DNA from: an uncultured Candidatus Saccharibacteria bacterium
GTDB lineage: Bacteria; Patescibacteriota; Minisyncoccia; Phycocordibacterales; CAYRGE01
Direction of reading: 5' to 3'
Length of the DNA stretch: 64,000 bases
NCBI GenBank assembly: GCA_964612415.1
Contig: CAZTCT010000001.1
Location: 455 to 64,454 of the forward strand
The first letter of the stretch is position 1, and each line of letters starts with the position of its first letter. The notes beneath the pieces are model-generated. The model was given only the letters and a program-made list of their open reading frames with translations, did no database searches and was not told the origin of the DNA. Positions 22,083-48,771 of this stretch are shown in pieces. Made by a program: the position numbers and the translations under genes.

Positions 22083-22106
22083 CCCCTCATCTGTACAGAT
22101 GAGGGG
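22083..22106 (-). terminator. Hairpin terminator after the dCTP-deaminase-like gene.
   Basis: Palindrome CCCCTCATCTGTACAGATGAGGGG. In minus-strand sense it is followed by CUUUUUCUUUU. Confidence 0.6.
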
Positions 22107-22132
22107 TGGGTTAGGAGGGGTTCAAATGCTAA

Positions 22133-23266: not shown

Positions 23267-23348
23267 ATTGCACCTCCTCCTTGTAAAAGTTCAAAGTGAC
23301 TACCCAATTTTTACCATACTTTTTAGGAAAAAAGAAAACTCCCTGTCC

Positions 23349-23376
23349 TTGCCCCCTCTTGCAAAATACCTATAAT
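23349..23376 (+). promoter_or_regulatory. Sigma70-like promoter for the 23433 gene.
   Basis: TTGCCC, 16-nt spacer, then a perfect TATAAT at 23371..23376. A strong SD (AAAAAGGAGG) sits 5-14 nt before the ATG. Confidence 0.4.
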
Positions 23377-23432
23377 GGATCCAGTAATAACAGTTCTTAA
23401 AATCAGTTCAACCATGAAAAAGGAGGCTGGTT

Positions 23433-24806
23433 ATGTCTTTCAGGGCACTCAACCATGTAATACGCCCACTTTCTTATCCGCTCCCTCACAAGGGCATGAT
23501 ATTGGTTTTGGACACAGGGGCACAAATTACACCCGAGGCAGAGGCAATGCTTCAAGCATTGTATTCTCGTTCTATTGAAGAGGTACTCGTACATCTCGAT
23601 GAGATCCAGAAAAAGGGTCCTGAAAAATTCATGTCCACATTCTACGTTGGATACGGACATAAATCGATCGGTGATTGCGGCACTGGTACTATTTTTATCG
23701 AGGGTGTCTCAATGCTTGCTGCGAAAGCAATCCAGGATTGGGCACTTTATTCGGGGCAGGAAGCATCAACAAGGTACATTGATTTCTCAAAGCAGTATTT
23801 TCTAAATCCAATTGGTTCGCAGAAAGCAAATGCATTACTTGAAGACTGGCGCGTGTTTTATCTACATGCTCAAAAGCCACTTCAGACTTTCTTGTGTGAG
23901 CGATTCCCACGCGCTCCTGAAGAAAAGGAGTCTGTGTATGACAAGGCGATCAAGGCAAGGGCGTTCGATATCTTGCGAGGGTTCCTCCCTGCCGGGGCAA
24001 CAACAAAACTGGCTTGGCATACCAATCTTCGTCAAGCAGCTGATAAACTTGCGCTTCTGCGGCATCACCCCTTGGAAGAAGTGCGCATGATAGCTGACGC
24101 GATCGAAGATGCACTCAAGGAAATGTTCCCGAGTTCATTTGGACACAAGCGCTACCAAGAAACAGAAGATTATAATGCATTTTGGATGGGTGAAAAATAC
24201 TACTTTACTAATCCACGCCCGAGTGACTACAAGGTAACAAACTGTGGAATAAATCGCCGGCTCGTGGCGCAATACCAGGATATTTTGGAGCGTCGACCCC
24301 CAAAAACAGAGCTCCCCAAATTCCTGGCGGAATGCGGAACAATGCAACTTGAGTTTACTCTTGATTTTGCATCGTTCCGGGACATACAACGTCACAGAGC
24401 AGTGATACAACGCATGCCATTGGTTTGTCACGACCACGGATTTGAGCCATGGTATCTAAATGAACTTCCTTCAAGGCTTCGAACTGAAGCAGAGCAGTTA
24501 CTGCTTTCCCAAGAAAATGGTCTCCGAACAATGATTCTCCCTCAGAGTTCCAAGGAGGAGGCACAGTATTACACTGCTATGGGTTATCGATTGCCAAATC
24601 GTCTTACTGGCGACTTGCCAGCACTAGTCTATTTGGCGGAGTTGCGCGCAACAAGATTTGTCCATTCAACGCTCCGCAAAAGAGCAATTCAAATAGGGGA
24701 AACCCTTGAACAACTGTTCGGAAAACATGGATTGAAAATTCATTTCGACAAAGATCCTGACCGGTTTGACGTTAAGCGTGGAGAGCACGATATCGTCAAA
24801 GTATGA
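23433..24806 (+). CDS. Hypothetical protein, possibly a divergent flavin-dependent thymidylate synthase (ThyX-like) with a large insertion.
   Basis: 457 aa. The N-terminus MILVLDTGAQITPEAEAMLQALYSRS...GYGHKSIGDC loosely resembles the ThyX N-terminus and HxS motif. A later FRDIQRHRAVIQRM segment resembles the ThyX RHR motif, and LPNRLTGDLPALVYLAELRATRFVHS may match the ThyX C-terminal region. The gene lies inside a tmk/dcd/dut cluster. Confidence 0.3.
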   Translation: MSFRALNHVIRPLSYPLPHKGMILVLDTGAQITPEAEAMLQALYSRSIEEVLVHLDEIQKKGPEKFMSTFYVGYGHKSIGDCGTGTIFIEGVSMLAAKAIQDWALYSGQEASTRYIDFSKQYFLNPIGSQKANALLEDWRVFYLHAQKPLQTFLCERFPRAPEEKESVYDKAIKARAFDILRGFLPAGATTKLAWHTNLRQAADKLALLRHHPLEEVRMIADAIEDALKEMFPSSFGHKRYQETEDYNAFWMGEKYYFTNPRPSDYKVTNCGINRRLVAQYQDILERRPPKTELPKFLAECGTMQLEFTLDFASFRDIQRHRAVIQRMPLVCHDHGFEPWYLNELPSRLRTEAEQLLLSQENGLRTMILPQSSKEEAQYYTAMGYRLPNRLTGDLPALVYLAELRATRFVHSTLRKRAIQIGETLEQLFGKHGLKIHFDKDPDRFDVKRGEHDIVKV

Positions 24807-24818
24807 TCCTTTGAGAAT

Positions 24819-24848
24819 AGCCCTGCTCACAGTACTGTGAGCAGGGCT
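24819..24848. terminator. Bidirectional hairpin terminator between the convergent 23433 gene and dut.
   Basis: AGCCCTGCTCACAG-TACT-CTGTGAGCAGGGCT followed by ATCTTTTATTT. Confidence 0.65.
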
Positions 24849-24853
24849 ATCTT

Positions 24854-25282
24854 TTATTTCCCCGTACTCCCAAATCCCCCCTCTCCTCGCACTGTATTAT
24901 CTAACTCTGCTACTTCCTCAATTTCTGCATGCTCTACTTTTTGAATAAGTAGTTGTGCTACTTTGTGCCCCTTTTCTATCGTGTATTCCTCATTCGAAAT
25001 ATTGGCAATACCTACCATAATCTCTCCGCGATACCCAGAGTCAATCACCCCGCCGAGTGTCTTAAGTCCATTTCTCATAGAAAGCCCGCTCTTATCCCAC
25101 ACAAGCCCCACATACCCCTTGGGGATAGCCATAGCGATACCTGTGGGAACCATAACGCGAGCACCCGGCACAACTGTGACATCTTGTATTGCGTACAAAT
25201 CAAGCCCTGCGTCACCATCATGGGCATAGAAAGGCACTTCTGCGTCTTCAGCAAGCTTTTTAATTTTAAGAGTGATTTTCAT
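24854..25282 (-). CDS. dut: dUTP diphosphatase.
   Basis: MKITLKIKKLAEDAEVPFYAHDGDAGLDLYA...GVIDSGYRGEI...RGEGGFGSTG covers all five dUTPase motifs. Start taken at the internal MKITL codon. Confidence 0.93.
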   Translation of the reverse strand: MKITLKIKKLAEDAEVPFYAHDGDAGLDLYAIQDVTVVPGARVMVPTGIAMAIPKGYVGLVWDKSGLSMRNGLKTLGGVIDSGYRGEIMVGIANISNEEYTIEKGHKVAQLLIQKVEHAEIEEVAELDNTVRGEGGFGSTGK

Positions 25283-25302
25283 ACAGCAATTGTACCCCAA
25301 AC

Positions 25303-25338
25303 AAAAAACGGCTCAACCGTACGGTTGAGCCGTTTTTT
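25303..25338 (-). terminator. Rho-independent terminator after rplK, copy 3 of the AACGGCTCAACCG palindromic element.
   Basis: AAAAAACGGCTCAACCG-TA-CGGTTGAGCCGTTTTTT, perfectly symmetric with U/A runs on both sides. Confidence 0.75.
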
Positions 25339-25356
25339 ATGCCTTAAAATCGATAT

Positions 25357-25779
25357 TTAGACCACTTCCATTCCCATTGAGCGGGCGGTCCCCTCTACGA
25401 TTTTCATCGCTGCCTCAACGTCGTTTGCATTCAAGTCAGGCATCTTTTTCTCTGCAATTTCACGAACTTGCGCCTTTGTGACAGAGCCAGCTTTGCTTAC
25501 CAAATTCTTCCCAGAACCCTTCTCTTTCCCCGCAGCCTTAAGAAGAAGATTCGCTGTTGGAGAAATCTTGGTGATGAAGGTAAAGCTTCTGTCCTCGTAT
25601 ACAGAAATAATAACAGGGACGATATCCCCCATCTGCTCACGGGTCTGCTCGTTGAATCGAGTAACGAATTCGCCGATATTTACCCCAGCCTGTCCGAGCG
25701 CTGGTCCGAGAGTCCCTGCAGGAGTAGCCTTCCCCCCTGGAACCTGTACTTTTATTGTCTTAACTACCTTTTTTGCCAT
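25357..25779 (-). CDS. rplK: 50S ribosomal protein L11.
   Basis: [39 protein letters not shown]... is a canonical L11. Confidence 0.97.
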
Positions 25780-25796
25780 AGTAGCGGGATTATAGT

Positions 25797-26342
25797 TTAA
25801 ATTTTCTTAACCTGCAAGAAGTCCAGCTCAATAGGAGTCTCGCGTCCAAACATTGAAACAAGGACCTTGATGCGCCCACGTTCCTCATCTACCTCACTGA
25901 TTTTGCCCTCAAGCTCCTTAAATGGCCCGTCTACGATCTGGACAGGGTCACCAGCTTGGAAATCAATCTTGTGTTTAACAGTCTCGCTCTTCATTCGAGA
26001 GAAGAGCATGTCTACTTCTTCCTTTGCCAAAGGCACTGGATGAATACCAGAGCCAACAAATCCAGTAACACGAGGGGTATTGCGCACTACATACCATGAA
26101 TCGTCAGTAACGATCATATCTACAAGGACGTAGCCAGGGTAGATTTTCTCTTCTACTTCATTGCGCTTTCCTCCTTTGATACGAATCTTCTTTTCTGTTG
26201 GGACGATCACACTAAAGATTTTGTCTTCCATTCCAAGAGATTCAATGCGCTGCTTGAGGTTGCGAGCAACTGCATTTTCATATCCAACATATGTGTGAAT
26301 CGCGTACCAATTTCGCTCTGGTTTTAATTCTTGTTTTGCCAT
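25797..26342 (-). CDS. nusG: Transcription antitermination factor NusG.
   Basis: NGN domain ([14 protein letters not shown]) and a KOW domain ([18 protein letters not shown]). Confidence 0.95.
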
Positions 26343-26381
26343 AAATGTACTATTGTGAAAGGTAAATATTTTGCCTCACTT

Positions 26382-26561
26382 TTATGATGCAATGCTCTTG
26401 AGCGCTCCGCTAAAGAGTGCGTCAAAAACGCCAAGGAAAACAGCAACAACAATGGAGATTGCAATGACTGCAACCGTGAAAAGAATTGCCTGCTTTCTGG
26501 TCGGCCAGCTTACATGCTTCAATTCCCCTTTTGTATCCTTCAGATAGTGTATGAGTCCCAT
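26382..26561 (-). CDS. secE: Preprotein translocase subunit SecE, short ~60-aa form.
   Basis: GELKHVSWPTRKQAILFTVAVIAISIVVAVFLG is the SecE TM helix plus its conserved VSWP segment. The ORF track's longer version starts with TTG at 26633, which falls inside the predicted -35 box, so the internal ATG at 26561 is preferred. Confidence 0.75.
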   Translation of the reverse strand: MGLIHYLKDTKGELKHVSWPTRKQAILFTVAVIAISIVVAVFLGVFDALFSGALKSIAS

Positions 26562-26604
26562 AAAAGTTTTTCCTATTAAAAAACGCCCTTTCGGGCTTTT
26601 TTTT

Positions 26605-26633
26605 ATACTACTCTCCTTGGGGTAATTTGTCAA
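26605..26633 (-). promoter_or_regulatory. Sigma70-type promoter for secE-nusG-rplK.
   Basis: Minus-strand reading gives TTGACA (26633..26628), the 17-nt spacer AATTACCCCAAGGAGAG, then TAGTAT (26610..26605). A small hairpin GCCCGAAAGGGC followed by U6 sits at the very start of the predicted leader (26583..26596). Confidence 0.45.
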
Positions 26634-26640
26634 ATAAAAT

Positions 26641-26664
26641 GCCCCGCCAGCATGCTGGCGGGGC
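26641..26664 (-). terminator. Terminator after the Nudix-like gene.
   Basis: Palindrome GCCCCGCCAGCATGCTGGCGGGGC. In minus-strand sense it is followed by AUUUUAUUU. Confidence 0.65.
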
Positions 26665-26678
26665 TGAGAGATCTTCCC

Positions 26679-27176
26679 TCAAACCATGTGAACAGATGCC
26701 CGAGAGCCTTGTACCAAGACCCTACGCAAGAGCTTTTGGTAGTACCCCCATGCTCTTACAACGGCAGTTCGATGACTAGGATCGACTTCGGGCGCGTCCA
26801 CGATTTGCTGGATTGAAGCCCAGTACGGAATGCGATCGCCACGATAATTCCTACTCTGGAAAGAAAGCTTCACGGGGGCAACACAAGTAAAAAAGAAGTG
26901 TGTCCCACCTTCTCGCTTTGCTGGTATAGTGTAAGAAAGCTGCGTGAGAGTGTCTTCAGGAAGGATTAGTCCTGTCTTTCTGGCGAGATGCCGCACCGCG
27001 GCAGCTAGATAACTATCATTTCCCCCTCGGACACACCCCCCAGGGAGAACATCGGCTAATTCATACACACTAGTACGGGGGTGCATAACGATGACATAGT
27101 GTTCTTTGTCTCTCCGCTGTTGTGGTGAAAAAACAACAACGGAAACAGCGTCACTACGACTTGGTCTCTTTTCCAC
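26679..27176 (-). CDS. Nudix-like hydrolase with a degenerate Nudix box.
   Basis: 165 aa. PGGCVRGGNDSYLAAAVRHLARKTGL occupies the Nudix-box position, but the Glu residues are replaced. The start is GTG, preceded by AAGGAG. Confidence 0.4.
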   Translation of the reverse strand: MEKRPSRSDAVSVVVFSPQQRRDKEHYVIVMHPRTSVYELADVLPGGCVRGGNDSYLAAAVRHLARKTGLILPEDTLTQLSYTIPAKREGGTHFFFTCVAPVKLSFQSRNYRGDRIPYWASIQQIVDAPEVDPSHRTAVVRAWGYYQKLLRRVLVQGSRASVHMV

Positions 27177-32462: not shown

Positions 32463-32921
32463 TTAATACAGTGTAATGTCCTCAAACACAGGCGCTCCAG
32501 AAATACTCAAAGCTGGCATATCTCGTGAAATAGCAAATTTCCTATTGCCATCATCGGCGTAGATGATTAACCTAACGCTTTGACCTTTAAAAGGTTGGCT
32601 ATCCAGAGCAATAGAAATATTATTATGCGCTCCCGCTGACAGATAGTCACTCACCCCCAAAACTTCCCCGGGAATACCTTTTTCAATTTCCATTACAACA
32701 ACAAAACCAGGGCGCACAAGGGATGCGTGCAGAACAGACACATTCTCTCCCGCCCCCTGTACTCCCGCAAAAATAGTATTCGCTTCCGTTTCCGCTTCAC
32801 CCACAGAGCTGTTGTCAAAAATAAAGGTGTGCCTTTCTGTCTTCCCAAAAACCAACCATCCCCCCAGAGAAACAGCAGCTACCACGACCAGAGACATAAG
32901 AATCTTCCGTTTCATCTTCAA
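32463..32921 (-). CDS. Hypothetical secreted protein.
   Basis: 152 aa with an N-terminal signal/TM segment (ILMSLVVVAAVSLGGWLVFG). No recognisable motif. Confidence 0.45.
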   Translation of the reverse strand: MKMKRKILMSLVVVAAVSLGGWLVFGKTERHTFIFDNSSVGEAETEANTIFAGVQGAGENVSVLHASLVRPGFVVVMEIEKGIPGEVLGVSDYLSAGAHNNISIALDSQPFKGQSVRLIIYADDGNRKFAISRDMPALSISGAPVFEDITLY

Positions 32922-33913
32922 TGTTTAAGCTTAAGCATGCGTAGAATGTGGTCCGCTACTCGTATCGGCATAGCGAGCATATTTTGCGCGAAATTTTTAA
33001 GTGGTGACATACTAGTGGGAGACGAGTCTTGCAACAAGTCGTCAACGGAAATCATCCCATTTTCACTAAGGGCTTCCAAGACGCAACTTTCTACCGCGGT
33101 ACGGAGTTCATCCGTAGAAATTATCCCTTCAACAACGTCCTCTTCTGCTCTCTCGCCAAGTCGCTCTTTCAAACAGAGAGCTGTCTCCTCTGGAAAACTT
33201 GCAAAATGAAATACCTCTGGCGCCACAACCGCATCAGGTGGAAGAGCACTTTCCCCAGCACCACCGCCAGCCTCAGGGACAGGAATTGTTTCAGAGATCG
33301 TGTCGCTTACCTGTAGCTCTTCGCCAGTTTTTTTGATTGACTCATTCATGTCTGCGGTAGTGGTCGCCTCAATATTTTCATTTAGCACATTTGCCACTGT
33401 GCCACGAGAAATCATCGCGAAGCCAACACACTCACTTACATGCTCGGGCATAAGACAATACGACAGACAAGAATCTTTTGAGGAGCAACCTCCTGGGAGC
33501 TCCCCGCCTGTCTTAAGGTAGCCGAGGACTCTTTTTGCTGCATCAACAATCTGAGTGTTTAGATTAAGCTCTGCAGCAAAAGAAAGGCATTCTTCTATAT
33601 GACCTATATTGTCGCAATACAAGATGCATTCTTTGGTACTTGCGCACGCTCCAGGCGTTTCACTTGAGAGTATCGCTTGAGAAAACTGCTTCGCCACCAC
33701 CACACTCTTGTCGGTAATAATTCCTTGCTTCTCTGCAAAGTCAGCACACGCCGGAATATTAACAGGTAGGTCACAGTACACACGACACTCTTCTTTATTT
33801 GTACACCCACCAAGCTCTTGTATAGGAAAAGAAAAATGCTCTTGCGCAGAAACAAAAAGAGGAAAGAAGGAGATGGCAAAAAAGAGGGCTATTTTAAAGA
33901 AATCGGTTCTCAT
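32918..33913 (-). CDS. Secreted protein with three tandem Cys-rich repeats (C-x5-C-x3-C-x8-C) and an acidic C-terminal region.
   Basis: Signal peptide MRTDFFKIALFFAISFFPLFVSAQE. Repeats are GGCTNKEECRVYCDLPVNIPACADFA, GACASTKECILYCDNIGHIEECLSFA and GGCSSKDSCLSYCLMPEHVSECVGFA. Confidence 0.6.
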   Translation of the reverse strand: MRTDFFKIALFFAISFFPLFVSAQEHFSFPIQELGGCTNKEECRVYCDLPVNIPACADFAEKQGIITDKSVVVAKQFSQAILSSETPGACASTKECILYCDNIGHIEECLSFAAELNLNTQIVDAAKRVLGYLKTGGELPGGCSSKDSCLSYCLMPEHVSECVGFAMISRGTVANVLNENIEATTTADMNESIKKTGEELQVSDTISETIPVPEAGGGAGESALPPDAVVAPEVFHFASFPEETALCLKERLGERAEEDVVEGIISTDELRTAVESCVLEALSENGMISVDDLLQDSSPTSMSPLKNFAQNMLAMPIRVADHILRMLKLKH

Positions 33914-34294: not shown

Positions 34295-34732
34295 TTACAC
34301 AAAAAGAATTGCTCCAACCACGACAAGGAGCGCTCCCAGCCCGGTTTTCCACGTTAATGATTCTCCTAAAAAAAGGATGGATAAGGCCAAAATAAACATT
34401 ATGCTCGTTTTATCAACAGCAGCAACGGCTGACGCATTTCCTACTTTAAGAGCAGCAAAATAAAATGCCCATGACAATGCCCCTGAAATACCGGCAAGTA
34501 CAATAAAAAGGAATGGTTTACCTGATAAAGCGGCAGGATCGTAAATCCGAAACGCAAAACAAGCACCTATTAAAACAATGGTGATGATGACGGAGCGAAC
34601 CATTGCCGCAAAAGTACTATCAATACCAGACACTCCAATCTTGCCAAAAACAGCAACGAGGGCTGCAAAAAACGCAGAACAAATAGCATATATAATCCAG
34701 GTGCTCATTTTATTGATGTTTCTTGAAAGCAA
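34295..34732 (-). CDS. EamA-like (DMT superfamily) small transporter.
   Basis: 145 aa, 4-5 TM helices, EamA-like pattern (...AALSGKPFLFIVLAGISGALSWAFYFAALKVGNASAVAAVDKTSIMF...). Confidence 0.55.
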   Translation of the reverse strand: MLSRNINKMSTWIIYAICSAFFAALVAVFGKIGVSGIDSTFAAMVRSVIITIVLIGACFAFRIYDPAALSGKPFLFIVLAGISGALSWAFYFAALKVGNASAVAAVDKTSIMFILALSILFLGESLTWKTGLGALLVVVGAILFV

Positions 34733-35135
34733 ACGAAAGGCTTGTGTATCCTAGGAATGTGGTAACAATTACTCCTAATATATTGAGCCAATATGGAATA
34801 GCAAATCCCCCAACAGAAAAGGAGAGTCCAAATAATACACGCAGAAGGTGCATGGCTGCTACAAGAAAAAACACACAACCAGCGATTATGAAAAAAGTGT
34901 GCTGTGGGTGTTTAAGAGGAAGAGATATTTTCCATCCATAATGAATAAGAAATACAAAAAGTATAAAATCAACGGTCAACCACGCATACACTGGCGGAGG
35001 AGTAAAAACTATTCCTAGAAACGGGAAAGCGTAGACGCCTTGAGTGAGCACCCAGAATCCCACGATTATGTCTGCAGCAATAACGCCTGCAAAAAATTTT
35101 GAAAGTTCGCGAAGTACATAGTGGTCTTTTTTCAT
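34710..35135 (-). CDS. Hypothetical polytopic membrane protein.
   Basis: About 140 aa. Start taken at MKKDHYVL to avoid overlapping the MazG-like gene. Confidence 0.4.
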   Translation of the reverse strand: MKKDHYVLRELSKFFAGVIAADIIVGFWVLTQGVYAFPFLGIVFTPPPVYAWLTVDFILFVFLIHYGWKISLPLKHPQHTFFIIAGCVFFLVAAMHLLRVLFGLSFSVGGFAIPYWLNILGVIVTTFLGYTSLSFAFKKHQ

Positions 35136-35143
35136 ACCATTTA

Positions 35144-35455
35144 TTAGTCTTTTTTCTCCCATCGATCCTTGTCACGCCCATAACATTTGTCCATTGTTCG
35201 CTCAAAACCCTTATCAAGGTCTAAGTCCAACGAGTTCGCGAGGCAACACAGCGTGAAAACAATATCCGCCATTTCATCCTCAAGATCTTTTGTGTCTTCA
35301 CTGTCTTTCTTTTTCTTGGGACCAAATCGATGATTGAGTTCTCGAGCAAGTTCGCCCGTCTCCTCTGTGAGGCGAGCTAATATTTCGAGGGGTTTCCAAT
35401 ACCCCATTTTATACTGTTTAACCCATTCATCTACTTCTCTCTGACGTTCCTTCAT
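35144..35455 (-). CDS. MazG-like nucleoside triphosphate pyrophosphohydrolase.
   Basis: EILARLTEETGELARE...LEDEMADIVFTLCCLANSLDLDLDKGFERTMDKCYGRDKDRW is a MazG/NTP-PPase helix bundle with the EExxE motif. Confidence 0.75.
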   Translation of the reverse strand: MKERQREVDEWVKQYKMGYWKPLEILARLTEETGELARELNHRFGPKKKKDSEDTKDLEDEMADIVFTLCCLANSLDLDLDKGFERTMDKCYGRDKDRWEKKD

Positions 35456-35462
35456 GGCACTT

Positions 35463-35954
35463 TTATTGTACTCCTTGAGGCAAATATTGTCTTCCTAGAG
35501 GAAACTCTGTGTCAGAGGCTGTCAAAAGCCATTGTTTAAAATCACCATCCTCACTTTTCCAGCGAGAGGCAAAGTCAATGAGCGTCATTTTGAATTGCGG
35601 ACCGTTCCAAGGATCATTGAGAACTACGTGCTCATCTCCCACATCTACCACGACAGCATAATGCCCCTCATCCGATGAGGGTTCAATAAAGTGCACAATT
35701 GCGGGATACCCGAGCGCGACAAAATATCGAAGCTCATCTGTTGTTGACTCTGTATTCACATACACATATAGCCCATTCTCACGGATTGTATCAATAATTG
35801 GTCCATGCTTTGTGCCTGTGCTCTTTCTTGTATGAAGAATTTGAATGAGATCCTCTTCGCTAAGTATCTTGCCATAAAACCGCAATATCATTTGGACAAC
35901 AGAAGGTCCGCATGAGTACCCTGTATCTTGTTTAAAAAAAGGAACATTGATCAT
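35463..35954 (-). CDS. Stand-alone peptidase C39-like domain protein (papain-like Cys/His/Asp), paralog 1.
   Basis: N-terminal PFFKQDTGYSCGPSVVQMIL has the C39 catalytic Cys context. GHYAVVVDVGDEHVVLNDPW has the His and Asp. No signal peptide and no ABC transporter domain. Confidence 0.7.
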   Translation of the reverse strand: MINVPFFKQDTGYSCGPSVVQMILRFYGKILSEEDLIQILHTRKSTGTKHGPIIDTIRENGLYVYVNTESTTDELRYFVALGYPAIVHFIEPSSDEGHYAVVVDVGDEHVVLNDPWNGPQFKMTLIDFASRWKSEDGDFKQWLLTASDTEFPLGRQYLPQGVQ

Positions 35955-35955
35955 G

Positions 35956-36522
35956 TTAGTGTCCTCCTCCTGAAAAAATTATCGAGCTCGGCCCGGCTTC
36001 AAAATTATAGTCTGCATTATGCATGTTTTGATCCCCTCCCATGCATGTTGCTTTTGTAAGTTGTGGCTGTGGAGTTTCAAACTTATTTATTGAAAGAACA
36101 GCTCTGTACTGATTTTCATTATTCACATCACACGTGGGAGTAGCCTGACACACAGATGTATTCATACAGTGCTCAGGATCATATGCATAAAAATACGTTA
36201 CTCCATCATACAATGGATCCTTCGGGACACGCGGCAAATATGGAGCGAGCGCCGCATCAATATTTCCGCCAACTCCTATTTTTTCTCCATACCCAGGAAC
36301 TCCTCCATATGGGGCAGGAGCCGGCACTTCTCCATCATGATCACTTTGAAAGAGCGCGATAGCAGTTGCAATGGCCTTAATATCAGAGAGCCTTTGCGCA
36401 TCTCGTGCTTTGGCGCGAGCAGCGTTCAGTGACCCAACAATAACGGTTGCCAATACACCGATAATCGCGATGACAATAAGAAGTTCAATAAGCGTAAACC
36501 CTTTTCCTTTTTTTGTATTCAT
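35956..36522 (-). CDS. Type IV pilin/pseudopilin.
   Basis: Class III prepilin signal MNTKKGKG|FTLIELLIVIAIIGVLA, with Gly at -1, Phe at +1 and Glu at +5. Globular C-terminal domain with Cys pairs. Confidence 0.9.
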   Translation of the reverse strand: MNTKKGKGFTLIELLIVIAIIGVLATVIVGSLNAARAKARDAQRLSDIKAIATAIALFQSDHDGEVPAPAPYGGVPGYGEKIGVGGNIDAALAPYLPRVPKDPLYDGVTYFYAYDPEHCMNTSVCQATPTCDVNNENQYRAVLSINKFETPQPQLTKATCMGGDQNMHNADYNFEAGPSSIIFSGGGH

Positions 36523-36563
36523 TTTCCTGCCAGTAAACCGTTAAAATAAGTGTACAGGATATT

Positions 36564-37049
36564 TTACTTCTCATCCACATCAAAAAGTTCACCCTCTATT
36601 GGTTTATTAGAAATGGCCAAAAGCCACTGTTTATGGGGCATGTATTTACTCTGCCATCGCCTCACAAACTCATCCAGTGGAAGTGTAAAGCCGGGACCAA
36701 ACCAAGGATCTTGAAGAACAATCTTGCCAGCGCTTATGTCTACAGCAACAGCGTAGTGTCCCTCATCCTCTTCTGGTTCAAGATAATCAATTATGACTGG
36801 AACTCCTTGTTTAATAAATTTTTTAATCTCCCTTGTTGTAGTATTCTCATTCACATATGTGAAGAAACCATGATGTTGCGCTGTTGTCACAAGCTCATGG
36901 TTAGCAGCGCCTGTTTCCTTGCTTACACTTAACACATGTGAGATCTCCTCTTCTGTAAGCTCGACTCCATAAAATTCAAGTACCATCCTGATAGACGCAA
37001 GGGCACAGGTGTGATCTTTCTCTTGTTTCCGAAATGGTACTGTAATCAT
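36564..37049 (-). CDS. Stand-alone peptidase C39-like domain protein, paralog 2.
   Basis: PFRKQEKDHTCALASIRMVLEFYG...GHYAVAVDISAGKIVLQDPW has the same Cys/His/Asp layout as the 35463 gene, with roughly 40% identity judged by eye. Confidence 0.7.
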   Translation of the reverse strand: MITVPFRKQEKDHTCALASIRMVLEFYGVELTEEEISHVLSVSKETGAANHELVTTAQHHGFFTYVNENTTTREIKKFIKQGVPVIIDYLEPEEDEGHYAVAVDISAGKIVLQDPWFGPGFTLPLDEFVRRWQSKYMPHKQWLLAISNKPIEGELFDVDEK

Positions 37050-37067: not shown

Positions 37068-37976
37068 CTAAAAAATAGACGGGGTGTTGGCTGGCCCAAA
37101 AGACACCAAGAGACTGAATATCATCAAAACAAGGATAGAAAAAAGAAACATTCTTCGTGCCCACTGCCGTTCTTCTGAACCGTTAACCTTTTTAAGGGAA
37201 AGATAAAGCCACCCCACCACAAGCGGAATAATAATGGAAAAATATAGTGTCCCCACATAACCTACAGCAAACAAGAGTGTTGCAAGGGCAGCAAACACAA
37301 TAATGTATAGGCGAATGTGTACTTTTGTATGTGCAATTCCTTTCACGACGGGGAGCACTGGCACCCCAGCCGCTTGGTAATCTCCGAGGCGATAGATGGC
37401 AATGGCATAAGAATGCGGCATCTGCCAAACACATAAAATAAGAAAAAGAAGCAGTGCGCCAAGATCAAAATACCCAGTAACCGCACAGTACCCCGCCACG
37501 GGCGGCACCGCACCAGATACACTCCCAATGAGTGTCCCATAGACTGTCTGTCTCTTCCCCCACATGCTATACACGATCACATAAAAGAATGCTCCGACTG
37601 CGGCGATAAACACTGCGAGCATATTTGTAAAAAAGAAAAGGAGAGAAAACCCGAGCACCCCAAGAACGCCGCCATATACAAGGGCGTGCCGAGGAGGTAT
37701 AAGCCCCGATACAAGTACGCGAGATTTTGTTCTCTCCATGAGCGCATCAATGTCCCTGTCGATGTAATTATTGAAGACACACCCAGCTGCCATTACAAAA
37801 GATACTCCAAAGACTGTGGCAACAAGAAGCCGCAGATCAATGCGCCCTCCCGCAGCAAGCAAGAACCCCGCAAGAATAGTGACGACGTTCCCGTAAATAA
37901 TCCCCGGTTTTACAAGTGAGTAATAATGCTTAAGCAAGATAGTTCTTAATTTAAAATCCGCCTGCCTGATTTTCAA
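37068..37976 (-). CDS. cyoE: Protoheme IX farnesyltransferase (heme O synthase).
   Basis: UbiA-family motifs NNYIDRDIDALMERTKSRVLV, plus 8-9 TM helices. Confidence 0.9.
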   Translation of the reverse strand: MKIRQADFKLRTILLKHYYSLVKPGIIYGNVVTILAGFLLAAGGRIDLRLLVATVFGVSFVMAAGCVFNNYIDRDIDALMERTKSRVLVSGLIPPRHALVYGGVLGVLGFSLLFFFTNMLAVFIAAVGAFFYVIVYSMWGKRQTVYGTLIGSVSGAVPPVAGYCAVTGYFDLGALLLFLILCVWQMPHSYAIAIYRLGDYQAAGVPVLPVVKGIAHTKVHIRLYIIVFAALATLLFAVGYVGTLYFSIIIPLVVGWLYLSLKKVNGSEERQWARRMFLFSILVLMIFSLLVSFGPANTPSIF

Positions 37977-38349
37977 ACTTCATGCTCTCCATGATCGTAT
38001 TCATTTCTTCCTGCGTCATCATCATATTATTGTTGAGGTTATTCATGATCCAGAGAGAGCCCACAACCACCACCCCCACAATAAACACCGTAAAAGAAAA
38101 AACAAGAAGGTTCCATCTTGGTCGAGACTCAGACCTAAGATGCAGGAAAAATATAAGTTGCACAACAAGCTGTGCTAAAGCAAACCCTAATACAGTGACC
38201 AAAAGAACATCTCGAGCTGCAATAGACTTCACCACAAGAAAATACGGTATGAGAGTGAACGCAAGAGAAAGAACGTACCCCCAAACATAGGACCGAAGTG
38301 TTCCCTGTCGTGCTCCATAATTTGTCTGTAAAACTTCAAAATCATTCAT
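37951..38349 (-). CDS. cyoD: Cytochrome o ubiquinol oxidase subunit IV.
   Basis: GSLWIMNNLNNNMMMT closely matches the E. coli CyoD C-terminus. Three TM helices. Confidence 0.85.
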   Translation of the reverse strand: MNDFEVLQTNYGARQGTLRSYVWGYVLSLAFTLIPYFLVVKSIAARDVLLVTVLGFALAQLVVQLIFFLHLRSESRPRWNLLVFSFTVFIVGVVVVGSLWIMNNLNNNMMMTQEEMNTIMESMKFENQAGGF

Positions 38350-38355
38350 ACGTCT

Positions 38356-38958
38356 TTATCCAATAGCGCCCATAAGATACACGATAGTAAAGATGAAGAT
38401 CCACACAATATCCAAAAAATGCCAGAAGAGCCCCCAGCATGTAAGCCTCCTCATCATCGCCGCAGCAAGATCACGCCCCCAGATTTGAATCATAAGAACG
38501 ATCATCCAAATTGACCCAAGTGTCACGTGTAGTCCGTGCGTGCCGACTAAAGTGAAAAAAGCTGACAAAAATCCGCTTCGAGACCACCCGTTCCCTTCGG
38601 AAAAGAAGTGCATGAATTCACTGATCTCAAGCGAGATGAATGAGATCCCAAGCACAAGCGTAGCGGCAAGCCATCCTAATACTTGCCGCTTCTTGTTGTG
38701 GTGTGCTGCAAGAAGAGCAAGGCCTGCCGTAAAGCTACTTGTTAAAAGAATGAGTGTTTCTGTAAGCGCGAAGGGCAAATCAAACAACTCCATTCCTGAA
38801 GGGCCGCCAAATGTATTGTTGCGGAGAACGGCATAAGTTGCAAAAAGGCTCGCGAACAAGACGCAGTCACTCATGATGTACACCCAAAAACCAAAGATGG
38901 TTTTTGAATCTTTTTCTCGTTGTACCGCAAGTTCCTCTTGATGGTTTTCTGTTGCCAT
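38356..38958 (-). CDS. cyoC: Cytochrome o ubiquinol oxidase subunit III.
   Basis: [23 protein letters not shown] matches CyoC. Start taken at MATENHQ, 4 nt after the cyoB stop. Confidence 0.88.
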
Positions 38959-38962
38959 ATAT

Positions 38963-40924
38963 TTATTGTGTAGCAAGCCGAGCTTCTGTGCGCGCAACCT
39001 CTTCTGCGGTAACCACATGTTCTGTGTGTTCATCAAACGATCGTATTACAAAACATACAATAGCAGCCAAAAGTCCAAAGATGGAGAGCCAGGTAATGTG
39101 CCATATCAACCCAAAGCAAAACAGAAAGCCGTAAAAAGCAATGTAAAATCCGACTGGTGTATTTTTGGGAAGATGAATGTCCTCATATTTTGAATGTGGC
39201 GGAATAGGCGTATCCGCATACTTCATGTGCCAAAAGGCATCTCGACTGTACACTCGAGGTATATGTGCGAAGTTATAGTGAGGAGGAGGAGAAGAAATAG
39301 ACCACTCAAGGGTGCGACCATCCCACGGATCTCCAGTTTTGTCTCGATTTCTTCCTCTATTTTTTATACTCACAATCAATTGGGCTAGCTGCACCAACGC
39401 ACCTCCTGCAAGAATGGCCGCGCCGACCGCAGCAACGATTAAAAGCGGGTTCCACGCAAAAGTATCATAATGATCAAGTCGTCGTGTCATGCCCATAAGA
39501 CCAAGTGCGTACAAAGGCATAAACGCAACAAAAAATCCGATGATCCAATGCCAGAAAGCGATGATGCCAAGCCGCTCGTTTAATTTAAATCCAAAGATTT
39601 TCGGAAACCAATAAGTAAGGCCTGCAAAATACCCAAAAAGAACACCTCCGATGATCATATTGTGAAAGTGCGCAACTAAGAATAAGCTGTTGTGAAGTTG
39701 GAAATCGGCTCCTGGTACCGAAAGAAGCACCCCTGTCATACCGCCCAAAGTAAACGTTGCAACAAACCCCAAGAACCAGTGCATTGGTGATGTAAAAGAT
39801 ACACGTCCCCTAAACATGGTAAAAAGCCAATTGAAAATCTTCACTCCCGTCGGAATAGCAATTACCATTGTAGCTATCGCGAAGAACGCATTCACATTCG
39901 GACCTGCCCCCATCGTGTAGAAGTGATGGAGCCACACAATAAAAGAGAGCACCGTTATCGCCATAGTTGCAACGACCATGGAAGTATACCCAAACAATCT
40001 CTTCTTTGAGAAAGTAGCCACTACTTCAGAAAAGACCCCAAACGCAGGAAGGATAAGAATATATACCTCTGGATGCCCCCACGCCCAAATAAGATTGACA
40101 TACATCATAAGATTCCCGCCAAACCCAGCCGTAAAGAAATGCATATCCATGAAGCGGTCAAGGAAAAGCATGGCGAGCGTCGCAGTAAGGATAGGAAACG
40201 CAAAGATAACAAGCGCCATGCTTCCGAGCACAGTCCACGCGAACACAGGCATGCGCATGAGCGTCATTCCTGGGGCACGCATTTTAAAAATCGTGACAAG
40301 AAAGTTTATTCCTGAGAAAAGTGAGCCGAGACCAGCTATCTGCAAACTCCAAATATAATAATCAACCCCTACCCCAGGACTGTACGCGATTTCAGAGAGT
40401 GGTGGGTATGCAAGCCACCCTGTTGCGGCAAATTCTCCCGCGACCAAAGAAAGGTTGAGTAGTACCGCTCCCATAGCAAAGAGCCAAAACGATAAAGAGT
40501 TTAGGAATGGAAATGCAACATCGCGTGCCCCAAGTTGCAGGGGCAATACCCAATTGATAAGTCCAAACATAATGGGCATCGCAACAAAAAATATCATGAT
40601 GACCCCATGCGCGGTGATCACCTGGTCGAAGTGGTCAGCAGAGAGAAAGCCTTGTGCGTCCCCTACTGCCATTGCCTGCTGAGCCCGCATCATCGCCGCA
40701 TCAACAAACCCACGCGCGAGCATGATCACCGCGACAACGATGTACATGACACCGATTTTTTTATGATCAAGAGAAGTCACCCACTCATTCCAGAACCACT
40801 TCCACCGCTTAAAGTAAGTGAGGAGTCCCGCGAACAAAAGCGCTCCAAAGACTACAGTGAGCTGTGCCATTGTTTCTACTACCCCATGGTGGATAAATGC
40901 ATCGATTGTTAGGTTGCCAAACAT
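38963..40924 (-). CDS. cyoB: Cytochrome o ubiquinol oxidase subunit I (heme-copper oxidase catalytic subunit).
   Basis: 653 aa, 12+ TM helices, with the conserved His ligands ([14 protein letters not shown]...HHFYTMG...[11 protein letters not shown]). Confidence 0.95.
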
Positions 40925-40956
40925 GTGTCTCTTTTGTTTAACTCATTATACAGAAA

Positions 40957-41880
40957 TTAGCGCACAGAGATGTGCTCACCCATGTCCATATTCATGTCCT
41001 CCATTGATCTTTGTTCCATCCCAGGCATCATAAACTTCAGCATGATCCGCTCAAAAAGATTACCTTCAACAGAGGAATAGAAAGTGACGGGATGATTTAT
41101 CGTTCGTTTCGCAAGCTCCGTATAAGTATCCCAGTCAAGCTTAAGACCAGAACTTTTCACATCATCAATCCATGAACGAAAACCTTCTTGGGTAACAACT
41201 CGCGTGAGAAAATTCATCCCAGAAAATCCCGCCCCGCTAAAGTTTGCCGAATTGCCCCAGTACGACCCAAGCTCGTCAGCAATAATATGAAGCTTTGTTT
41301 CCATCCCTGGCATTGCGTAAATCTGCCCGGAGAGTTGTGGCACCCAAAAGGAATTCATCGGCGCGTCTGCAGAAAGTTCAAAATTTATTGCTGTATCAAC
41401 AGGGATCTCAAGATAATTTACTGAGGCGATGCCTTGCTCTGGATAGATGAACAGCCACTTCCAATCAAGTGCTACGACCTGCACAGTGATTGGCTTTCCT
41501 TCTTCATGTAGGGGCCTGTATGGATCTAGCTCATGGGTTGTTCTCCAAGTAACAACCGCAAGTATAGAGATAAGGACAAAAGGAACAGCCCACCAGATAA
41601 GCTCATCTATCTTGCTGTGCTCCCAGTCAGGAGAATATTTTGCTTTTTCATTGCTGGCCCGATATGTCCACGCAAAAAAACCAGTAATCAAAAATACCGG
41701 GATTACTACGGTGAGCATCAAGAATGTTGCAAAAACGATGAGGTTTCGCTCCTCATCTGCAATAAGGCCCTTTGGGTCAAGAACAGAAATCCCCGCAACG
41801 CTTGAGAGAAAAAGAAAAAGGCCAATGGCACCAAAGAAAAGCAGAGCCACACGCAATACGGTCTTGTGATTTTGCTTCAT
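40957..41880 (-). CDS. cyoA: Cytochrome o ubiquinol oxidase subunit II, quinol-oxidase type with no CuA site.
   Basis: ALDWKWLFIYPEQGIASVN...MNSFWVPQLSGQIYAMPGMETKLH...FSGAGFSGMNF aligns with E. coli CyoA. No CxxxC...H CuA motif. Confidence 0.9.
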   Translation of the reverse strand: MKQNHKTVLRVALLFFGAIGLFLFLSSVAGISVLDPKGLIADEERNLIVFATFLMLTVVIPVFLITGFFAWTYRASNEKAKYSPDWEHSKIDELIWWAVPFVLISILAVVTWRTTHELDPYRPLHEEGKPITVQVVALDWKWLFIYPEQGIASVNYLEIPVDTAINFELSADAPMNSFWVPQLSGQIYAMPGMETKLHIIADELGSYWGNSANFSGAGFSGMNFLTRVVTQEGFRSWIDDVKSSGLKLDWDTYTELAKRTINHPVTFYSSVEGNLFERIMLKFMMPGMEQRSMEDMNMDMGEHISVR

Positions 41881-41889
41881 CGCGCATTA

Positions 41890-42894
41890 TTATACCATCC
41901 CTGCATGGATATGTTTCTTGAGATTTCTTTGAGATGACCAGAAGGACAGAAGAATAAAACATAGTCCAATTCCTCCAATGAGTACCCCGGGGACATGTAT
42001 CACAAGAGAAGCAAGCATCGCCCCAGAAAGGCCGAGTATTGCCCAGTGTGCGCCATGCTCAAGATAAATGAATGCTTCCAAGATATGCTTGCGCACAAGA
42101 TAGATTGTGATCGTTCGTACAAAGAACGCTCCAATACCAAGACCTGTCGCAATAACAAAAATATTTGATGAAAGTGCGAATGCTCCTACCACGCCATCCA
42201 AAGAAAAAGCAGTATCAAGGACATTAAGATACAAAAAGAGAAAAAGCCCTGTTTGTTCCATGAGCTTTGCTGATGCACCAAGAGCCTGCGTAACTCCCTC
42301 CATAAGAATAAAGAGTACGATACCGAATATTCCTGCGGTAAGGATATCTGCCACATGCTCCCCTGTTGCGACATAAGAGATGCCAAGAAGCACACATAGT
42401 GCAAGGGCTATCTCTACTGCTTCAACACGGCCCCATCGGGTAAGTCTCTCTTCAACAATTTCTATCCAGTGCACATCTTTTCCCTTATTAAAGAAATACT
42501 TCAATGAAACCATGAGGAGAAATGCCCCTCCGAAAGCGCTGATAATGTGGTGCGACCCTAGAAGTAACTCCCCGTACGCAACGGGGTCTTTTACTGCAAG
42601 CATGGTGATAATGACAGGAGACACCCATGCGGCAAGCGCGACTATAAAAATTGGCAACACCACACGCGTACCAAATACGGCAACCCATATACCCCATGTG
42701 AGAAAGCGGTTTTGCCATTTCTCGTCCATCCTTTTGAGAACGCGGGCATTGATAACCGCGTTATCAAAAGAAAGCGTCACCTCAAGTACGGAGAGCATGG
42801 CTGCAAGCACGAATGCATGGAGCCCAAGATAGTAGTAGATGGCCCCAAGCGCCAAAACAGCAATTATTATTGGGAAAATGAAGATGCTCTTCAT
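41890..42894 (-). CDS. TerC/DUF475-family integral membrane protein.
   Basis: 334 aa polytopic protein with the LSFDNAVINA motif. Confidence 0.5.
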   Translation of the reverse strand: MKSIFIFPIIIAVLALGAIYYYLGLHAFVLAAMLSVLEVTLSFDNAVINARVLKRMDEKWQNRFLTWGIWVAVFGTRVVLPIFIVALAAWVSPVIITMLAVKDPVAYGELLLGSHHIISAFGGAFLLMVSLKYFFNKGKDVHWIEIVEERLTRWGRVEAVEIALALCVLLGISYVATGEHVADILTAGIFGIVLFILMEGVTQALGASAKLMEQTGLFLFLYLNVLDTAFSLDGVVGAFALSSNIFVIATGLGIGAFFVRTITIYLVRKHILEAFIYLEHGAHWAILGLSGAMLASLVIHVPGVLIGGIGLCFILLSFWSSQRNLKKHIHAGMV

Positions 42895-47332: not shown

Positions 47333-47632
47333 TCAATTGCCTGCCTCAAGTAATGCCTGCATGCGAGCAGCCTTCTGCCCGTAATGATCCATTACTTTAT
47401 TGAGCAGATCCACTTTAAGCGTCGTTTCAGTGACAGATTCTGTAGGAGATTCCTGAAAGATAGTCCCGGCATTTACCTGCAAGAAAACATAGACATGCAG
47501 TGCGATCGCACAGAGGAGTGCCGCAGCGAATACTGAAAAAATAATTCTCCAGTCTCGATAGGGCTTAATTGCAAGTCGAGAGGGATCGTCCTGCTCCTCC
47601 TGTTTTTTAATTTTAAACTTTGGGAATTTCAT
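47333..47632 (-). CDS. Hypothetical small membrane-anchored protein at the distal end of the pilMNO operon, a possible PilP analogue.
   Basis: 99 aa. Basic N-terminus, then a TM helix IIFSVFAAALLCAIALHVYVFL. It starts 7 nt after pilO. Confidence 0.45.
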   Translation of the reverse strand: MKFPKFKIKKQEEQDDPSRLAIKPYRDWRIIFSVFAAALLCAIALHVYVFLQVNAGTIFQESPTESVTETTLKVDLLNKVMDHYGQKAARMQALLEAGN

Positions 47633-47638
47633 ACAACT

Positions 47639-48184
47639 TTATTCTTCTTGAGTAGGAGCAACGTAGCTATCCACGCGGACAGAAAAAGTTCCTCTCCAAC
47701 TTGACCCACTCTTACTATCTCCACCTCCTTGGTTAACAAGATTTACACTATTGATATGCGCGTCATAAGGAATATTCTCCAGTAATTCTATGAAGTTCAT
47801 GACCCTCTCAAAGGTGCCTTCTGCCTGCACAGAAAATGAGAGGCTCTTTCCTCCTTCTTCCCTCAGCCCAGATAGGGTTGTCTTTACCCCAATAGCGGTT
47901 CCCCATCCTTCAATGTTCCCAATGAAATCAATTACATCCTCTGGCGTAAGAAATAATGCATCGAGTTCAGACCGTTTGTTTGCTGTTTCTTCGAGGGTTT
48001 TTTTGAATGTCTGAAGGTTCGCACGACGCATGTCTGCTTGAGCCGATTGTTCAAGAATAAGAGAAGATTGTCCAACCTCCTTTTTCACAAAATAGAATGC
48101 CGCCGCGTAGACCCCTCCAAAGAGCACGAAGAGTACTCCCGCGACAATGGTGACATTTTGTATTTTTGTTGGGTGTTTTGCCAT
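47639..48184 (-). CDS. pilO: Type IV pilus assembly protein PilO-like.
   Basis: 181 aa. N-terminal TM helix, then a coiled-coil and ferredoxin-like periplasmic domain. Position after pilN. Confidence 0.5.
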   Translation of the reverse strand: MAKHPTKIQNVTIVAGVLFVLFGGVYAAAFYFVKKEVGQSSLILEQSAQADMRRANLQTFKKTLEETANKRSELDALFLTPEDVIDFIGNIEGWGTAIGVKTTLSGLREEGGKSLSFSVQAEGTFERVMNFIELLENIPYDAHINSVNLVNQGGGDSKSGSSWRGTFSVRVDSYVAPTQEE

Positions 48185-48189
48185 AATAA

Positions 48190-48765
48190 TTATCCCTCTT
48201 GTGTATCTGCCTTAGCGCTGCCAGTGATTCGCATTGTCATGGAGAACTTAATGTCTTGTTCTGAAATGAGAGTATCTAGGGGATAATTCACATCTTCAAA
48301 CAAAGCATCGTTCTCAAGTGCAGTTGCAAAATTCCCAAGCGCTTTTCTGTCCTTGGCGACACCCTGCAAGGAGATCTGCGCCCCCTCTTTCCCACTTGCG
48401 CTATAAATGAAAACAAGGAGTGTGATGTTCCCATTTGGAATTCGTGCAAGCACCTCATTCACCAAGTGGATCGGTGATGGGTCAGGATTTTGGATGCTTA
48501 TCTCCAGCCTCCCCAGCTTCACGTTTGTATCATCTATGACATCGCTTGGGACCACGCCGATCTCCTGAGAGATCATGTCTTCCACCATCTTAAGATCAGC
48601 CGCGGAGATACGTGCTTGTCTTGCTGAAAGTAGATATGGAGGAGCAAGAAGAAGCGTTGAAATAATAAAAAGCAACGCCCCTAGAAAAAGAATTGTCGTC
48701 CACCTCCTGAGGTGGTAGTTTTTAATAATCGCTTGCTTTGTTTTTACTGGAATGAGATTGCTCAT
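48190..48765 (-). CDS. pilN: Type IV pilus assembly protein PilN-like.
   Basis: 191 aa. Short cytoplasmic N-terminus (NLIPVKTKQAIIKNYHLRR) that would bind PilM, then a TM helix and periplasmic domain. Confidence 0.55.
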   Translation of the reverse strand: MSNLIPVKTKQAIIKNYHLRRWTTILFLGALLFIISTLLLAPPYLLSARQARISAADLKMVEDMISQEIGVVPSDVIDDTNVKLGRLEISIQNPDPSPIHLVNEVLARIPNGNITLLVFIYSASGKEGAQISLQGVAKDRKALGNFATALENDALFEDVNYPLDTLISEQDIKFSMTMRITGSAKADTQEG

Positions 48766-48771
48766 GTTGTA

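Follow-up and report, generated by a model that had tools for sequence, protein, structure and literature searches.

Two leaderless C39-family peptidases around a type IV pilin gene in a Saccharibacteria genome: probable cytoplasmic enzymes and a sandwich probably formed by insertion

Introduction

Why would a type IV pilin gene lie between two paralogous genes for C39-like cysteine peptidases in the genome of an uncultured Candidatus Saccharibacteria bacterium? We addressed this question in a stretch of 64,000 nucleotides (nt) of contig CAZTCT010000001.1 (assembly GCA_964612415.1, positions 455 to 64,454; hereafter the window), where two peptidase genes, here called C39-A and C39-B, flank a prepilin gene on the minus strand. 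A sequence-only reading of the window had suggested a dedicated module in this arrangement, with the peptidases possibly maturing or trimming the pilin or processing a pilus-associated peptide. Our analysis favors a different answer: C39-A and C39-B are probably two leaderless members of the C39 family, of which C39-B is ancestral at this site, the sandwich having resulted from an insertion and the proteins being cytoplasmic processing endopeptidases unrelated to the pilin.

Results

By profile and catalytic residues, and in the case of C39-B also by its modeled fold, C39-A and C39-B are members of the C39-fold peptidases. C39-A matched the Pfam families PF03412 (E = 6.8e-14, 52.3 bits) and PF13529 (E = 2.3e-12, 48.1 bits), as did C39-B (E = 9.6e-13, 48.6 bits, and E = 4.4e-13, 50.4 bits), against cut-offs of 22 bits for PF03412 and 24 bits for PF13529. 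The two proteins share 42% identity over 148 amino acids (aa; E = 7e-48), which makes them paralogs, and both carry the catalytic set Gln9/Cys15/His98/Asp114 within the motifs Q9-x5-C15-(G/A), which reads C15-A16 in C39-A, GHYAV(V/A)VD, and (N/Q)DPW. In alignments of the paralogs and their relatives, Q9, C15, H98, D114, W132, and the IEP, GHYAV, and DPW motifs were invariant, and HMMER aligned C15, H98, and D114 with motifs in the ComA peptidase domain (ComA PEP), namely CGP, HYxVV, and DP. C39-B ends in the tail LGRQYLP, while C39-A lacks the LGxQYxP tail of the family. The two peptidase genes, the prepilin gene, and a MazG gene follow one another on the minus strand, all four open reading frames (ORFs) lying where the sequence-only reading had placed them:

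37049..36564, minus strand: C39-A, 161 aa, PF03412 and PF13529
36522..35956, minus strand: prepilin, 188 aa, GspG-like, PF07963 and TIGR02532
35954..35463, minus strand: C39-B, 163 aa, PF03412 and PF13529
35455..35144, minus strand: small MazG-domain nucleoside triphosphate pyrophosphohydrolase, 103 aa, PF03819

Neither C39 protein has a signal peptide or is fused to an ATP-binding cassette (ABC) transporter, and each consists of the C39 domain only. The ATG of C39-B (35954..35952) lies 1 nt past the pilin TAA (35958..35956) and that of C39-A 18 nt past the stop codon of the preceding gene, cyoE; given that both starts abut upstream stop codons, there is no room for an N-terminal extension on either protein. 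The AlphaFold2 model of C39-B was of high quality (predicted local distance difference test 92.7, predicted template modeling score 0.90), and a Foldseek search superposed it on the pseudomurein endoisopeptidase PeiR (E = 6e-10, template modeling (TM) score 0.74) and on ComA PEP, PCAT1, and LahT150 (E ~1e-7, TM ~0.72). Both proteins are presumably genuine stand-alone clan-CA cysteine peptidases, predicted from their sequences to be active, and what the sequence-only reading had said of their catalytic layout, of the missing signal peptides and transporter fusions, and of the two genes flanking the pilin stands.

With the ComA, PCAT1, and LahT peptidase domains as the best-characterized relatives by structure, one possibility is a split bacteriocin or RiPP (ribosomally synthesized and post-translationally modified peptide) system, in which the C39 proteins would act as leader peptidases for double-glycine peptides encoded elsewhere and exported by a separate ABC transporter. 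Catalytic residues and spacing like those of ComA PEP, and weak NCBIfam matches to the N-termini of bacteriocin ABC transporters, point in the same direction. However, when ORFs of 25–150 aa in the window and at 48 related loci were scanned with a regular expression for double-glycine leaders, none turned up close to the C39 genes, the only matches being spurious in-gene ones in L010 and L014. Our gene searches in the organism's own genome covered the 64-kb window of a 205-kb contig; the sole ABC system there is an ABC-2 pair at 53–55 kb, and no PCAT-type exporter is present. Nor does an ABC exporter recur beside family members, given that the one “ABC” cluster of neighbors, spanning four loci, consisted of unrelated ATP-binding-cassette proteins, FtsE- or MacB-like by eye, plus one 597-aa exporter. 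The family also occurs in genome-reduced lineages from the Candidate Phyla Radiation (CPR) as well as DPANN archaea without associated biosynthetic genes. We therefore rejected membership in a PCAT/AMS bacteriocin system, there being no fusion, exporter, or precursor in the window, and consider a split system unlikely.

A profile search over 1.84 billion cluster representatives showed that the two proteins belong to a larger family, with at least 152 clusters (50% identity) at E < 1e-30. The best 150 representatives had a median length of 157 aa, the domain beginning no more than 10 residues from the N-terminus in 137 of the 150 and a signal peptide occurring in only one. Wherever the position was covered in these representatives, the catalytic residues were kept almost without exception (Gln 135/135, Cys 137/137, His 150/150, Asp 148/149), the lone deviation being one Asp-to-Asn change. 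Members came from Paceibacterota, Kaiser-, Zambryski-, and Nomurabacteria, Saccharibacteria-labeled bins, and three Pacearchaeota. For two of these, a neighboring gene supports an archaeal origin, in L011 one for an intein-containing EF-2 and in L033 one for a diphthamide synthase; L025, the third, is assigned to the archaea by label only, its scanned neighbors being TP_methylase-family and Pup-ligase family proteins. More distantly related proteins occur in Dehalococcoidia, Desulfobacteraceae, Elusimicrobia, and other groups; some of them are lipoproteins or secreted, and their contexts were uninformative for the family. Our literature search found no paper on the leaderless C39 family or on any link between C39 and pilins; PMC13642728 describes a different, multidomain C39-like protein of a methanogen.

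PeiR was the best match in the PDB not only by structure but also by sequence (E = 4.5e-6, followed by ComA PEP at 9e-5), which suggests a cell-wall lytic endopeptidase or endoisopeptidase like PeiW, PeiP, and PeiR that would cut cross-link peptides of the host's or the cell's own wall during episymbiosis. Pei enzymes cut the Ala-epsilon-Lys isopeptide bond of pseudomurein (PMC4592898), and PMC9600506 describes CPR and DPANN organisms as surface-attached symbionts, both of which would suit such a role. On the other hand, the proteins have neither a signal peptide nor a wall-binding domain, the match is restricted to the PeiR catalytic domain (residues 84–216), and the 137 representatives mentioned above are likewise leaderless. 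There is no phage or lysis context and the neighbors are housekeeping genes, and the family spans wall-less or S-layer archaea as well as peptidoglycan-bearing bacteria. A lytic role is thus quite unlikely.

Several family members departed from the common architecture. In one rare fusion (P0103, 350 aa), the C39 domain is preceded by a GNAT acetyltransferase, P0130 (586 aa) is secreted and has two C39 domains, and P0151 (253 aa) was matched over two stretches in the profile search and has a single Pfam C39 domain. At two loci (L001, 3011..4320; L067, 4180..5489), a 264-aa C39_2-like paralog with a hydrophobic N-terminus and a long acidic linker is encoded directly 5' of a leaderless 162-aa family member and 3' of a YkuD L,D-transpeptidase gene.

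The history of the site was reconstructed from the genes on either side of the sandwich. Beyond the four genes listed above, the window holds:

42894..41890, minus strand: TerC/DUF475 (DUF475 E = 1.3e-88)
41880..37951, minus strand: cytochrome-oxidase-like operon, read as cyoABCD without a Pfam scan in the window; COX4_pro was recorded for the 132-aa product in L048
37976..37068, minus strand: cyoE/UbiA (UbiA E = 2.6e-66), directly 5' of C39-A
35162..34710, minus strand: membrane protein, 150 aa
34732..34295, minus strand: EamA-like transporter

In this CPR-type genome, the block of cytochrome-oxidase-like operon and TerC (37068..42894, minus strand) looks like a lineage-specific acquisition.

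Four related loci have flanking genes in common with the window (Cob_adeno_trans, EamA, PGI, SIMPL, SecE-NusG-L11, and a histidine kinase), and each encodes one C39 protein, with no pilin, second C39, or cyo genes:

L002: Cob_adeno_trans ... C39 ... SIMPL, SecE, NusG, and L11
L058: EamA, C39, and PGI, together with two small membrane proteins
L060: Cob_adeno_trans ... C39 ... PGI and a histidine kinase
L070: pseudouridine synthase, Cob_adeno_trans, and C39

C39-B was the window protein nearest to the C39 of L002, L058, and L070 (44–55% identity), and the C39 of L060 was a tblastn match to C39-B that was not recovered as a single reading frame in the ORF calls. Between Cob_adeno_trans and C39 in L002, L060, and L070, the genes for TerC, cyoABCDE, C39-A, and the pilin are all absent. 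Given that these syntenic relatives keep one C39-B-like gene without pilin or cyo genes, C39-B appears to be ancestral at this site, and TerC-cyoABCDE-C39-A-pilin appears to have been inserted. The origin of C39-A was harder to place: a word-indexed search retrieved nothing beyond the query, several family representatives tied in BLAST at ~38–42% identity, and the protein formed a long, deep branch in a neighbor-joining tree. In the same tree, the two C39 copies of L003 (4659..6609), which bracket a membrane-anchored staphylococcal-nuclease-like gene, were sister sequences, so that their duplication would be recent and independent of the one in the window.

The arrangement in the window is essentially unconserved in related genomes. 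We compared three contigs with close homologs, 42 loci representing one genome per species, and 64 metagenome loci, using ORF calling, a hidden Markov model of the family, and the prepilin motif, and clustered the neighbors of 28 and then ~90 loci all-against-all by BLAST. An adjacent pilin was found in none of the 27 close species-representative loci, among which only L015 has pilins, 2.5–5 kb off, and a pilin-motif gene occurred in none of the 64 metagenome loci (471 genes). No neighbor family was present in more than five of the ~90 loci, the commonest cluster being GT2-like glycosyltransferases (five loci). Conversely, three full-length homologs of the pilin at ~50% identity (P0168, P0169, P0172) had no C39 neighbor and stood in unrelated housekeeping contexts. 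The full arrangement recurred in L048, an identical strain, and pilin-C39-B-MazG in L046 (81% identity for C39-B, 87% for the pilin), a 2.2-kb contig that ends just 5' of the pilin gene. A conserved C39-pilin-C39 module was therefore rejected: the arrangement exists in the window and L048, and in part in L046, and is absent from the 27 and 64 family loci and the three pilin loci.

The proximity of the genes carries little information in a window this compact, whose gene content and relatives indicate a Paceibacterota-like member of the Patescibacteria/CPR. About 90% of the window is coding, the median gap between same-strand genes is 22 nt, and 21 of 55 such gaps (38%) are no longer than 10 nt; since tight same-strand packing is the rule, the adjacency of the pilin is not more than expected by chance, whereas the paralogy and domain assignments are. 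A pilin gene frequency of 0.3–1% predicts roughly one pilin-adjacent lineage among the ~90 family loci. The MazG gene immediately downstream, which the sequence-only reading had identified correctly (PF03819, E = 1.2e-14, 54.7 bits against a cut-off of 22), starts 7 nt after C39-B and is retained 3' of it in L046 and L048; MazG was not among the called neighbors of the listed family loci, nor among the recurring neighbor clusters. A promoter and terminator scan detected no signal above background separating the genes, with one weak 5-bp hairpin and T-run within the pilin 3' end, an Rfam scan of the whole window returned tRNAs only, and the PADLOC defense libraries had no match for any of the five genes searched.

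The middle gene encodes, as previously described, a canonical class III prepilin ending in FSGGGH. Its N-terminus, MNTKKGKG/FTLIE (the slash separating positions -1 and +1), carries a glycine at -1 and a glutamate at +5 ahead of a hydrophobic helix (KGKG/FTLIELLIVIAIIGVLA); a peptide from the prepilin N-terminus reads MNTKKGKGFTLIELL and one from the C-terminus AGPSSIIFSGGGH. The protein matched N_methyl (PF07963, E = 1.6e-8) and TIGR02532 (31.7 bits, cut-off 16.3) and fell below the cut-off of the GspG equivalog TIGR01710 (47.1 bits, cut-off 88.85); it is GspG-like, as usual among CPR pilins. Further along the window, PilM (48772..49887, minus strand) stands ahead of a weakly PilN-like gene (48190..48765) and of two small genes without annotation (whole span 47333..49887), a partial type IV pilus assembly cluster that is separate from the pilin and 12 kb away. 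The presence of PilM and a PilN-like gene indicates that the usual pilus machinery exists, and the pilin would be an ordinary substrate of prepilin peptidase and of this machinery. On two unrelated CPR contigs (L051, 4001..5798; L052, 4001..6527), homologs of the pilin are paired beside an IS200/Y1-type transposase gene, a hint that these pilin genes move or are rearranged.

The C-terminus of the pilin, ...SSIIFSGGGH, is unusual in that homologs at 43–55% identity stop ~8–10 residues sooner. Nine of the 11 full-length homologs aligned end soon after a conserved ADYN motif, P0167 has a different extension, and ...SSIIFSGGGH was found only in the window pilin and a near relative (P0166). From the last pilin codons to the C39-B start, the DNA reads TCA GGA GGA GGA CAC TAA C ATG and includes the following site:

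35962..35971, minus strand: Shine-Dalgarno site AGGAGGAGGA for C39-B, within the last pilin codons (Ser-Gly-Gly-Gly), read from the sequence

The 3' end of this site is 7 nt from the C39-B ATG and its GGAGG core 8 nt upstream. The pilin codons GGAGGAGGA that double as the C39-B Shine-Dalgarno are conserved in L046, which keeps the whole of AGGAGGAGGA and differs in the stop codon (TAG) and the spacer base. The SGGGH tail is thus most simply read as a translated ribosome-binding site and not as a peptidase recognition motif, the odd ending arising because the pilin reading frame runs through the ribosome-binding site of C39-B.

These observations bear directly on the dedicated pilin module, in which the C39 pair would mature or trim the pilin, either by substituting for PilD at the leader or by cutting behind the Gly-Gly in the tail, or would process a pilus-associated peptide. 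The three genes are contiguous on one strand, only 1 nt separates the pilin stop from the start of C39-B, both the arrangement and the GGGH tail persist in L046 and L048, and C39 enzymes cut after Gly-Gly, all of which would fit such a module. However, in type IV pilins only the short leader is cytoplasmic and the C-terminus is extracytoplasmic, out of reach of peptidases without a signal peptide. C39 domains such as those of ComA, LahT, and PCAT bind amphipathic leaders of ~15 residues ending in Gly-Gly, Gly-Ala, or Gly-Ser, whereas the leader of the pilin has eight residues, ends in Lys-Gly, and lacks the amphipathic helix. The tail, moreover, is specific to this lineage and its GGG codons are the ribosome-binding site of C39-B, no pilin adjoins the family genes at ~90 other loci and no C39 gene adjoins the three pilin homologs, the syntenic relatives encode one C39 protein each without a pilin, and the family is present in Pacearchaeota too. 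With the adjacency confined to one lineage and with topology and tail both speaking against maturation or trimming, neither the module nor the possible roles that the sequence-only reading had named for the peptidases hold up, and we regard this explanation as highly unlikely.

A further lead came from archaeal family members, whose surroundings hint at a peptidase that would process or deconjugate a protein modifier ending in Gly, or act on a translation factor. The C39 gene adjoins the intein-containing aEF-2 gene in L011 (1871..6065), overlaps the diphthamide synthase gene in L033 (5322..6486), and in L025 (3532..6486) follows a TP_methylase-family gene (possibly Dph5-like) and a Pup-ligase gene (PF03136, E = 8.5e-91), with a 60-aa ORF ending in ...PSGE (5726..5908) at the same locus. 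In L057 (104..1308), it overlaps a gene judged by eye to resemble S1-domain aIF2-alpha; RF2 lies directly 3' in L015 and L022 and near a C39 match in L095, within one CPR clade; and the GNAT-C39 fusion could be added to this list. These loci are few and phylogenetically related, however, so that inherited synteny could explain the pattern, and reduced genomes are rich in translation genes. The Pup-ligase homolog was found at one locus only, EF-2 or Dph adjacency occurred in none of the 64 metagenome loci, and no such genes lie near the C39 genes of the window. Taken on its own, this role is highly improbable for C39-A and C39-B. A combined version, in which the ~160-aa C39 proteins of CPR and DPANN organisms process or deconjugate proteins in the cytoplasm as Gly-specific peptidases and the duplicated, co-translated copies in the window were recruited to cut the FSGG/GH tail or the leader of the pilin, is very unlikely; were it true, leaderless C39 proteins would be a functionally distinct class, acting for example on Pup/UBact-like modifiers or on translation factors. 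A Pup-ligase homolog in a DPANN archaeon (L025) is itself unusual.

Some features of the window lie outside the C39 and pilin genes. Isoleucyl-tRNA synthetase (16164..19799, minus strand; 1,211 aa) has a His_Phos_1 domain at residues 558–725, between the halves of its catalytic domain. The 331-aa product of the gene at 32918..33913 (minus strand), for which Pfam returned no match, has a signal-like segment at its N-terminus and contains a four-cysteine motif (GGC..KEEC..YCD......C..FA) three times. A dense run of deoxynucleotide-metabolism genes (21353..27176) comprises thymidylate kinase, a 377-aa dCTP deaminase, dUTPase, NUDIX, and a 457-aa ThyX-like protein in which the Thy1 domain covers residues 40–234 only, and MazG (35144..35455) adds to this set.

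Discussion

We propose that a lineage-specific block was inserted 5' of C39-B, between the Cob(I)alamin adenosyltransferase and tRNA-His genes on one side and C39-B on the other. This block would have brought TerC, cyoABCDE, C39-A as a divergent second copy, and one GspG-like pilin gene out of those scattered through the genome. The C39-pilin-C39 sandwich would then be a side effect of shifting gene order where genes are packed very compactly, and not a functional module. Judging from the conserved residues and the fold, each C39 protein would act alone in the cytoplasm as a thiol endopeptidase, with Cys15 as the nucleophile, His98 as the base, Asp114 orienting the histidine, and Gln9 forming the oxyanion hole. 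Its resemblance to the family suggests that each enzyme may process a cellular peptide or protein other than the pilin by limited cleavage beside small, Gly-Gly-like residues.

Several observations weigh against this explanation. The pilin-C39-B-MazG order with its 1-nt junction has been retained in L046, the co-transcription of the pilin and C39-B genes in this lineage is real and their translation is perhaps coupled, and in L003, too, the independently duplicated C39 genes enclose one that encodes an exported, membrane-anchored protein (C39-SNase-C39). The Gly-Gly-type specificity would follow from fold and family resemblance only, with no candidate substrate found, and the evidence from the organism's own genome comes from 64 kb of the 205-kb contig, so that PilD, ABC exporters, or leader peptides may be encoded elsewhere.

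Given that the pilin-maturation module does not hold, that specific claim matters little. The locus is more instructive as an illustration of how compact genomes generate misleading “modules” and as a worked example of a protein tail that can be merely a translated ribosome-binding site. The stand-alone C39 family is a different matter: it is coherent, catalytically intact by sequence, uncharacterized, and common to the CPR and DPANN radiations of ultra-small symbionts, and it comes without an exporter, a precursor peptide, or a conserved genomic partner. Were its substrate known, one more function could be assigned within these symbionts' very small proteomes, and this family is the only part of the present findings that might repay experiments.

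Among known systems, the stand-alone C39-like families represented by PF13529 are close in organization. C39-A and C39-B had significant matches to PF13529 and PF12385 and a structural match to the Bacillus anthracis protein 3ERV, and, like AvrRpt2/C70, DUF3335, and PA2778, they are stand-alone papain-like domains. Known C70 effectors are secreted type III effectors. The DUF3335 model scored below its own cut-off on the window proteins, and the PA2778 family (NF033920) was rejected, the two proteins scoring 37.3 and 36.7 bits where 150 is the cut-off, with matches to the first 135 of 255 profile positions only. None of PF13529, C70, DUF3335, and PA2778 is defined by a leaderless protein of ~160 aa with a CPR and DPANN distribution. 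PeiR (8Z4H), PeiW, and PeiP (MEROPS C71) have in common with the window proteins a Cys/His/Asp papain-like catalytic domain, at 20–21% identity in the case of PeiR, whose match was barely better than those of the C39 domains. Yet PeiR is a virus-encoded lysin with an additional N-terminal region, the match starting at residue 84 of its 228-residue chain, while C39-A and C39-B are single-domain, chromosomal proteins without a lysis or virus context.

The peptidase domains of ComA (3K8U, 5XE8), PCAT1 (4RY2, 6V9Z), and LahT150 (6MPZ), all MEROPS C39, share with the window proteins the fold (TM ~0.72, root-mean-square deviation 2.1–2.7 Å), the Gln-x5-Cys...His...Asp layout at similar spacing, and PF03412 matches above threshold. 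In contrast to these domains, to which they are ~20–24% identical, the window proteins are neither fused to an ABC exporter nor encoded beside one, no double-glycine precursor lies nearby, their family has an extra conserved C-terminal tail (W-x-M/L-x-I-S...LGxQYxP), and it occurs in housekeeping contexts of CPR and DPANN genomes. Similarly, the pilin has the G/FTLIE motif of CPR GspG-like pilins and the RDA-R-SD and PKDP...Y-Y-Y-DP core common to more than 1,000 homologs, whose genes are scattered singly in housekeeping contexts, and it differs from them by the SGGGH extension of ~8–10 residues that overlaps the ribosome-binding site of the next gene.

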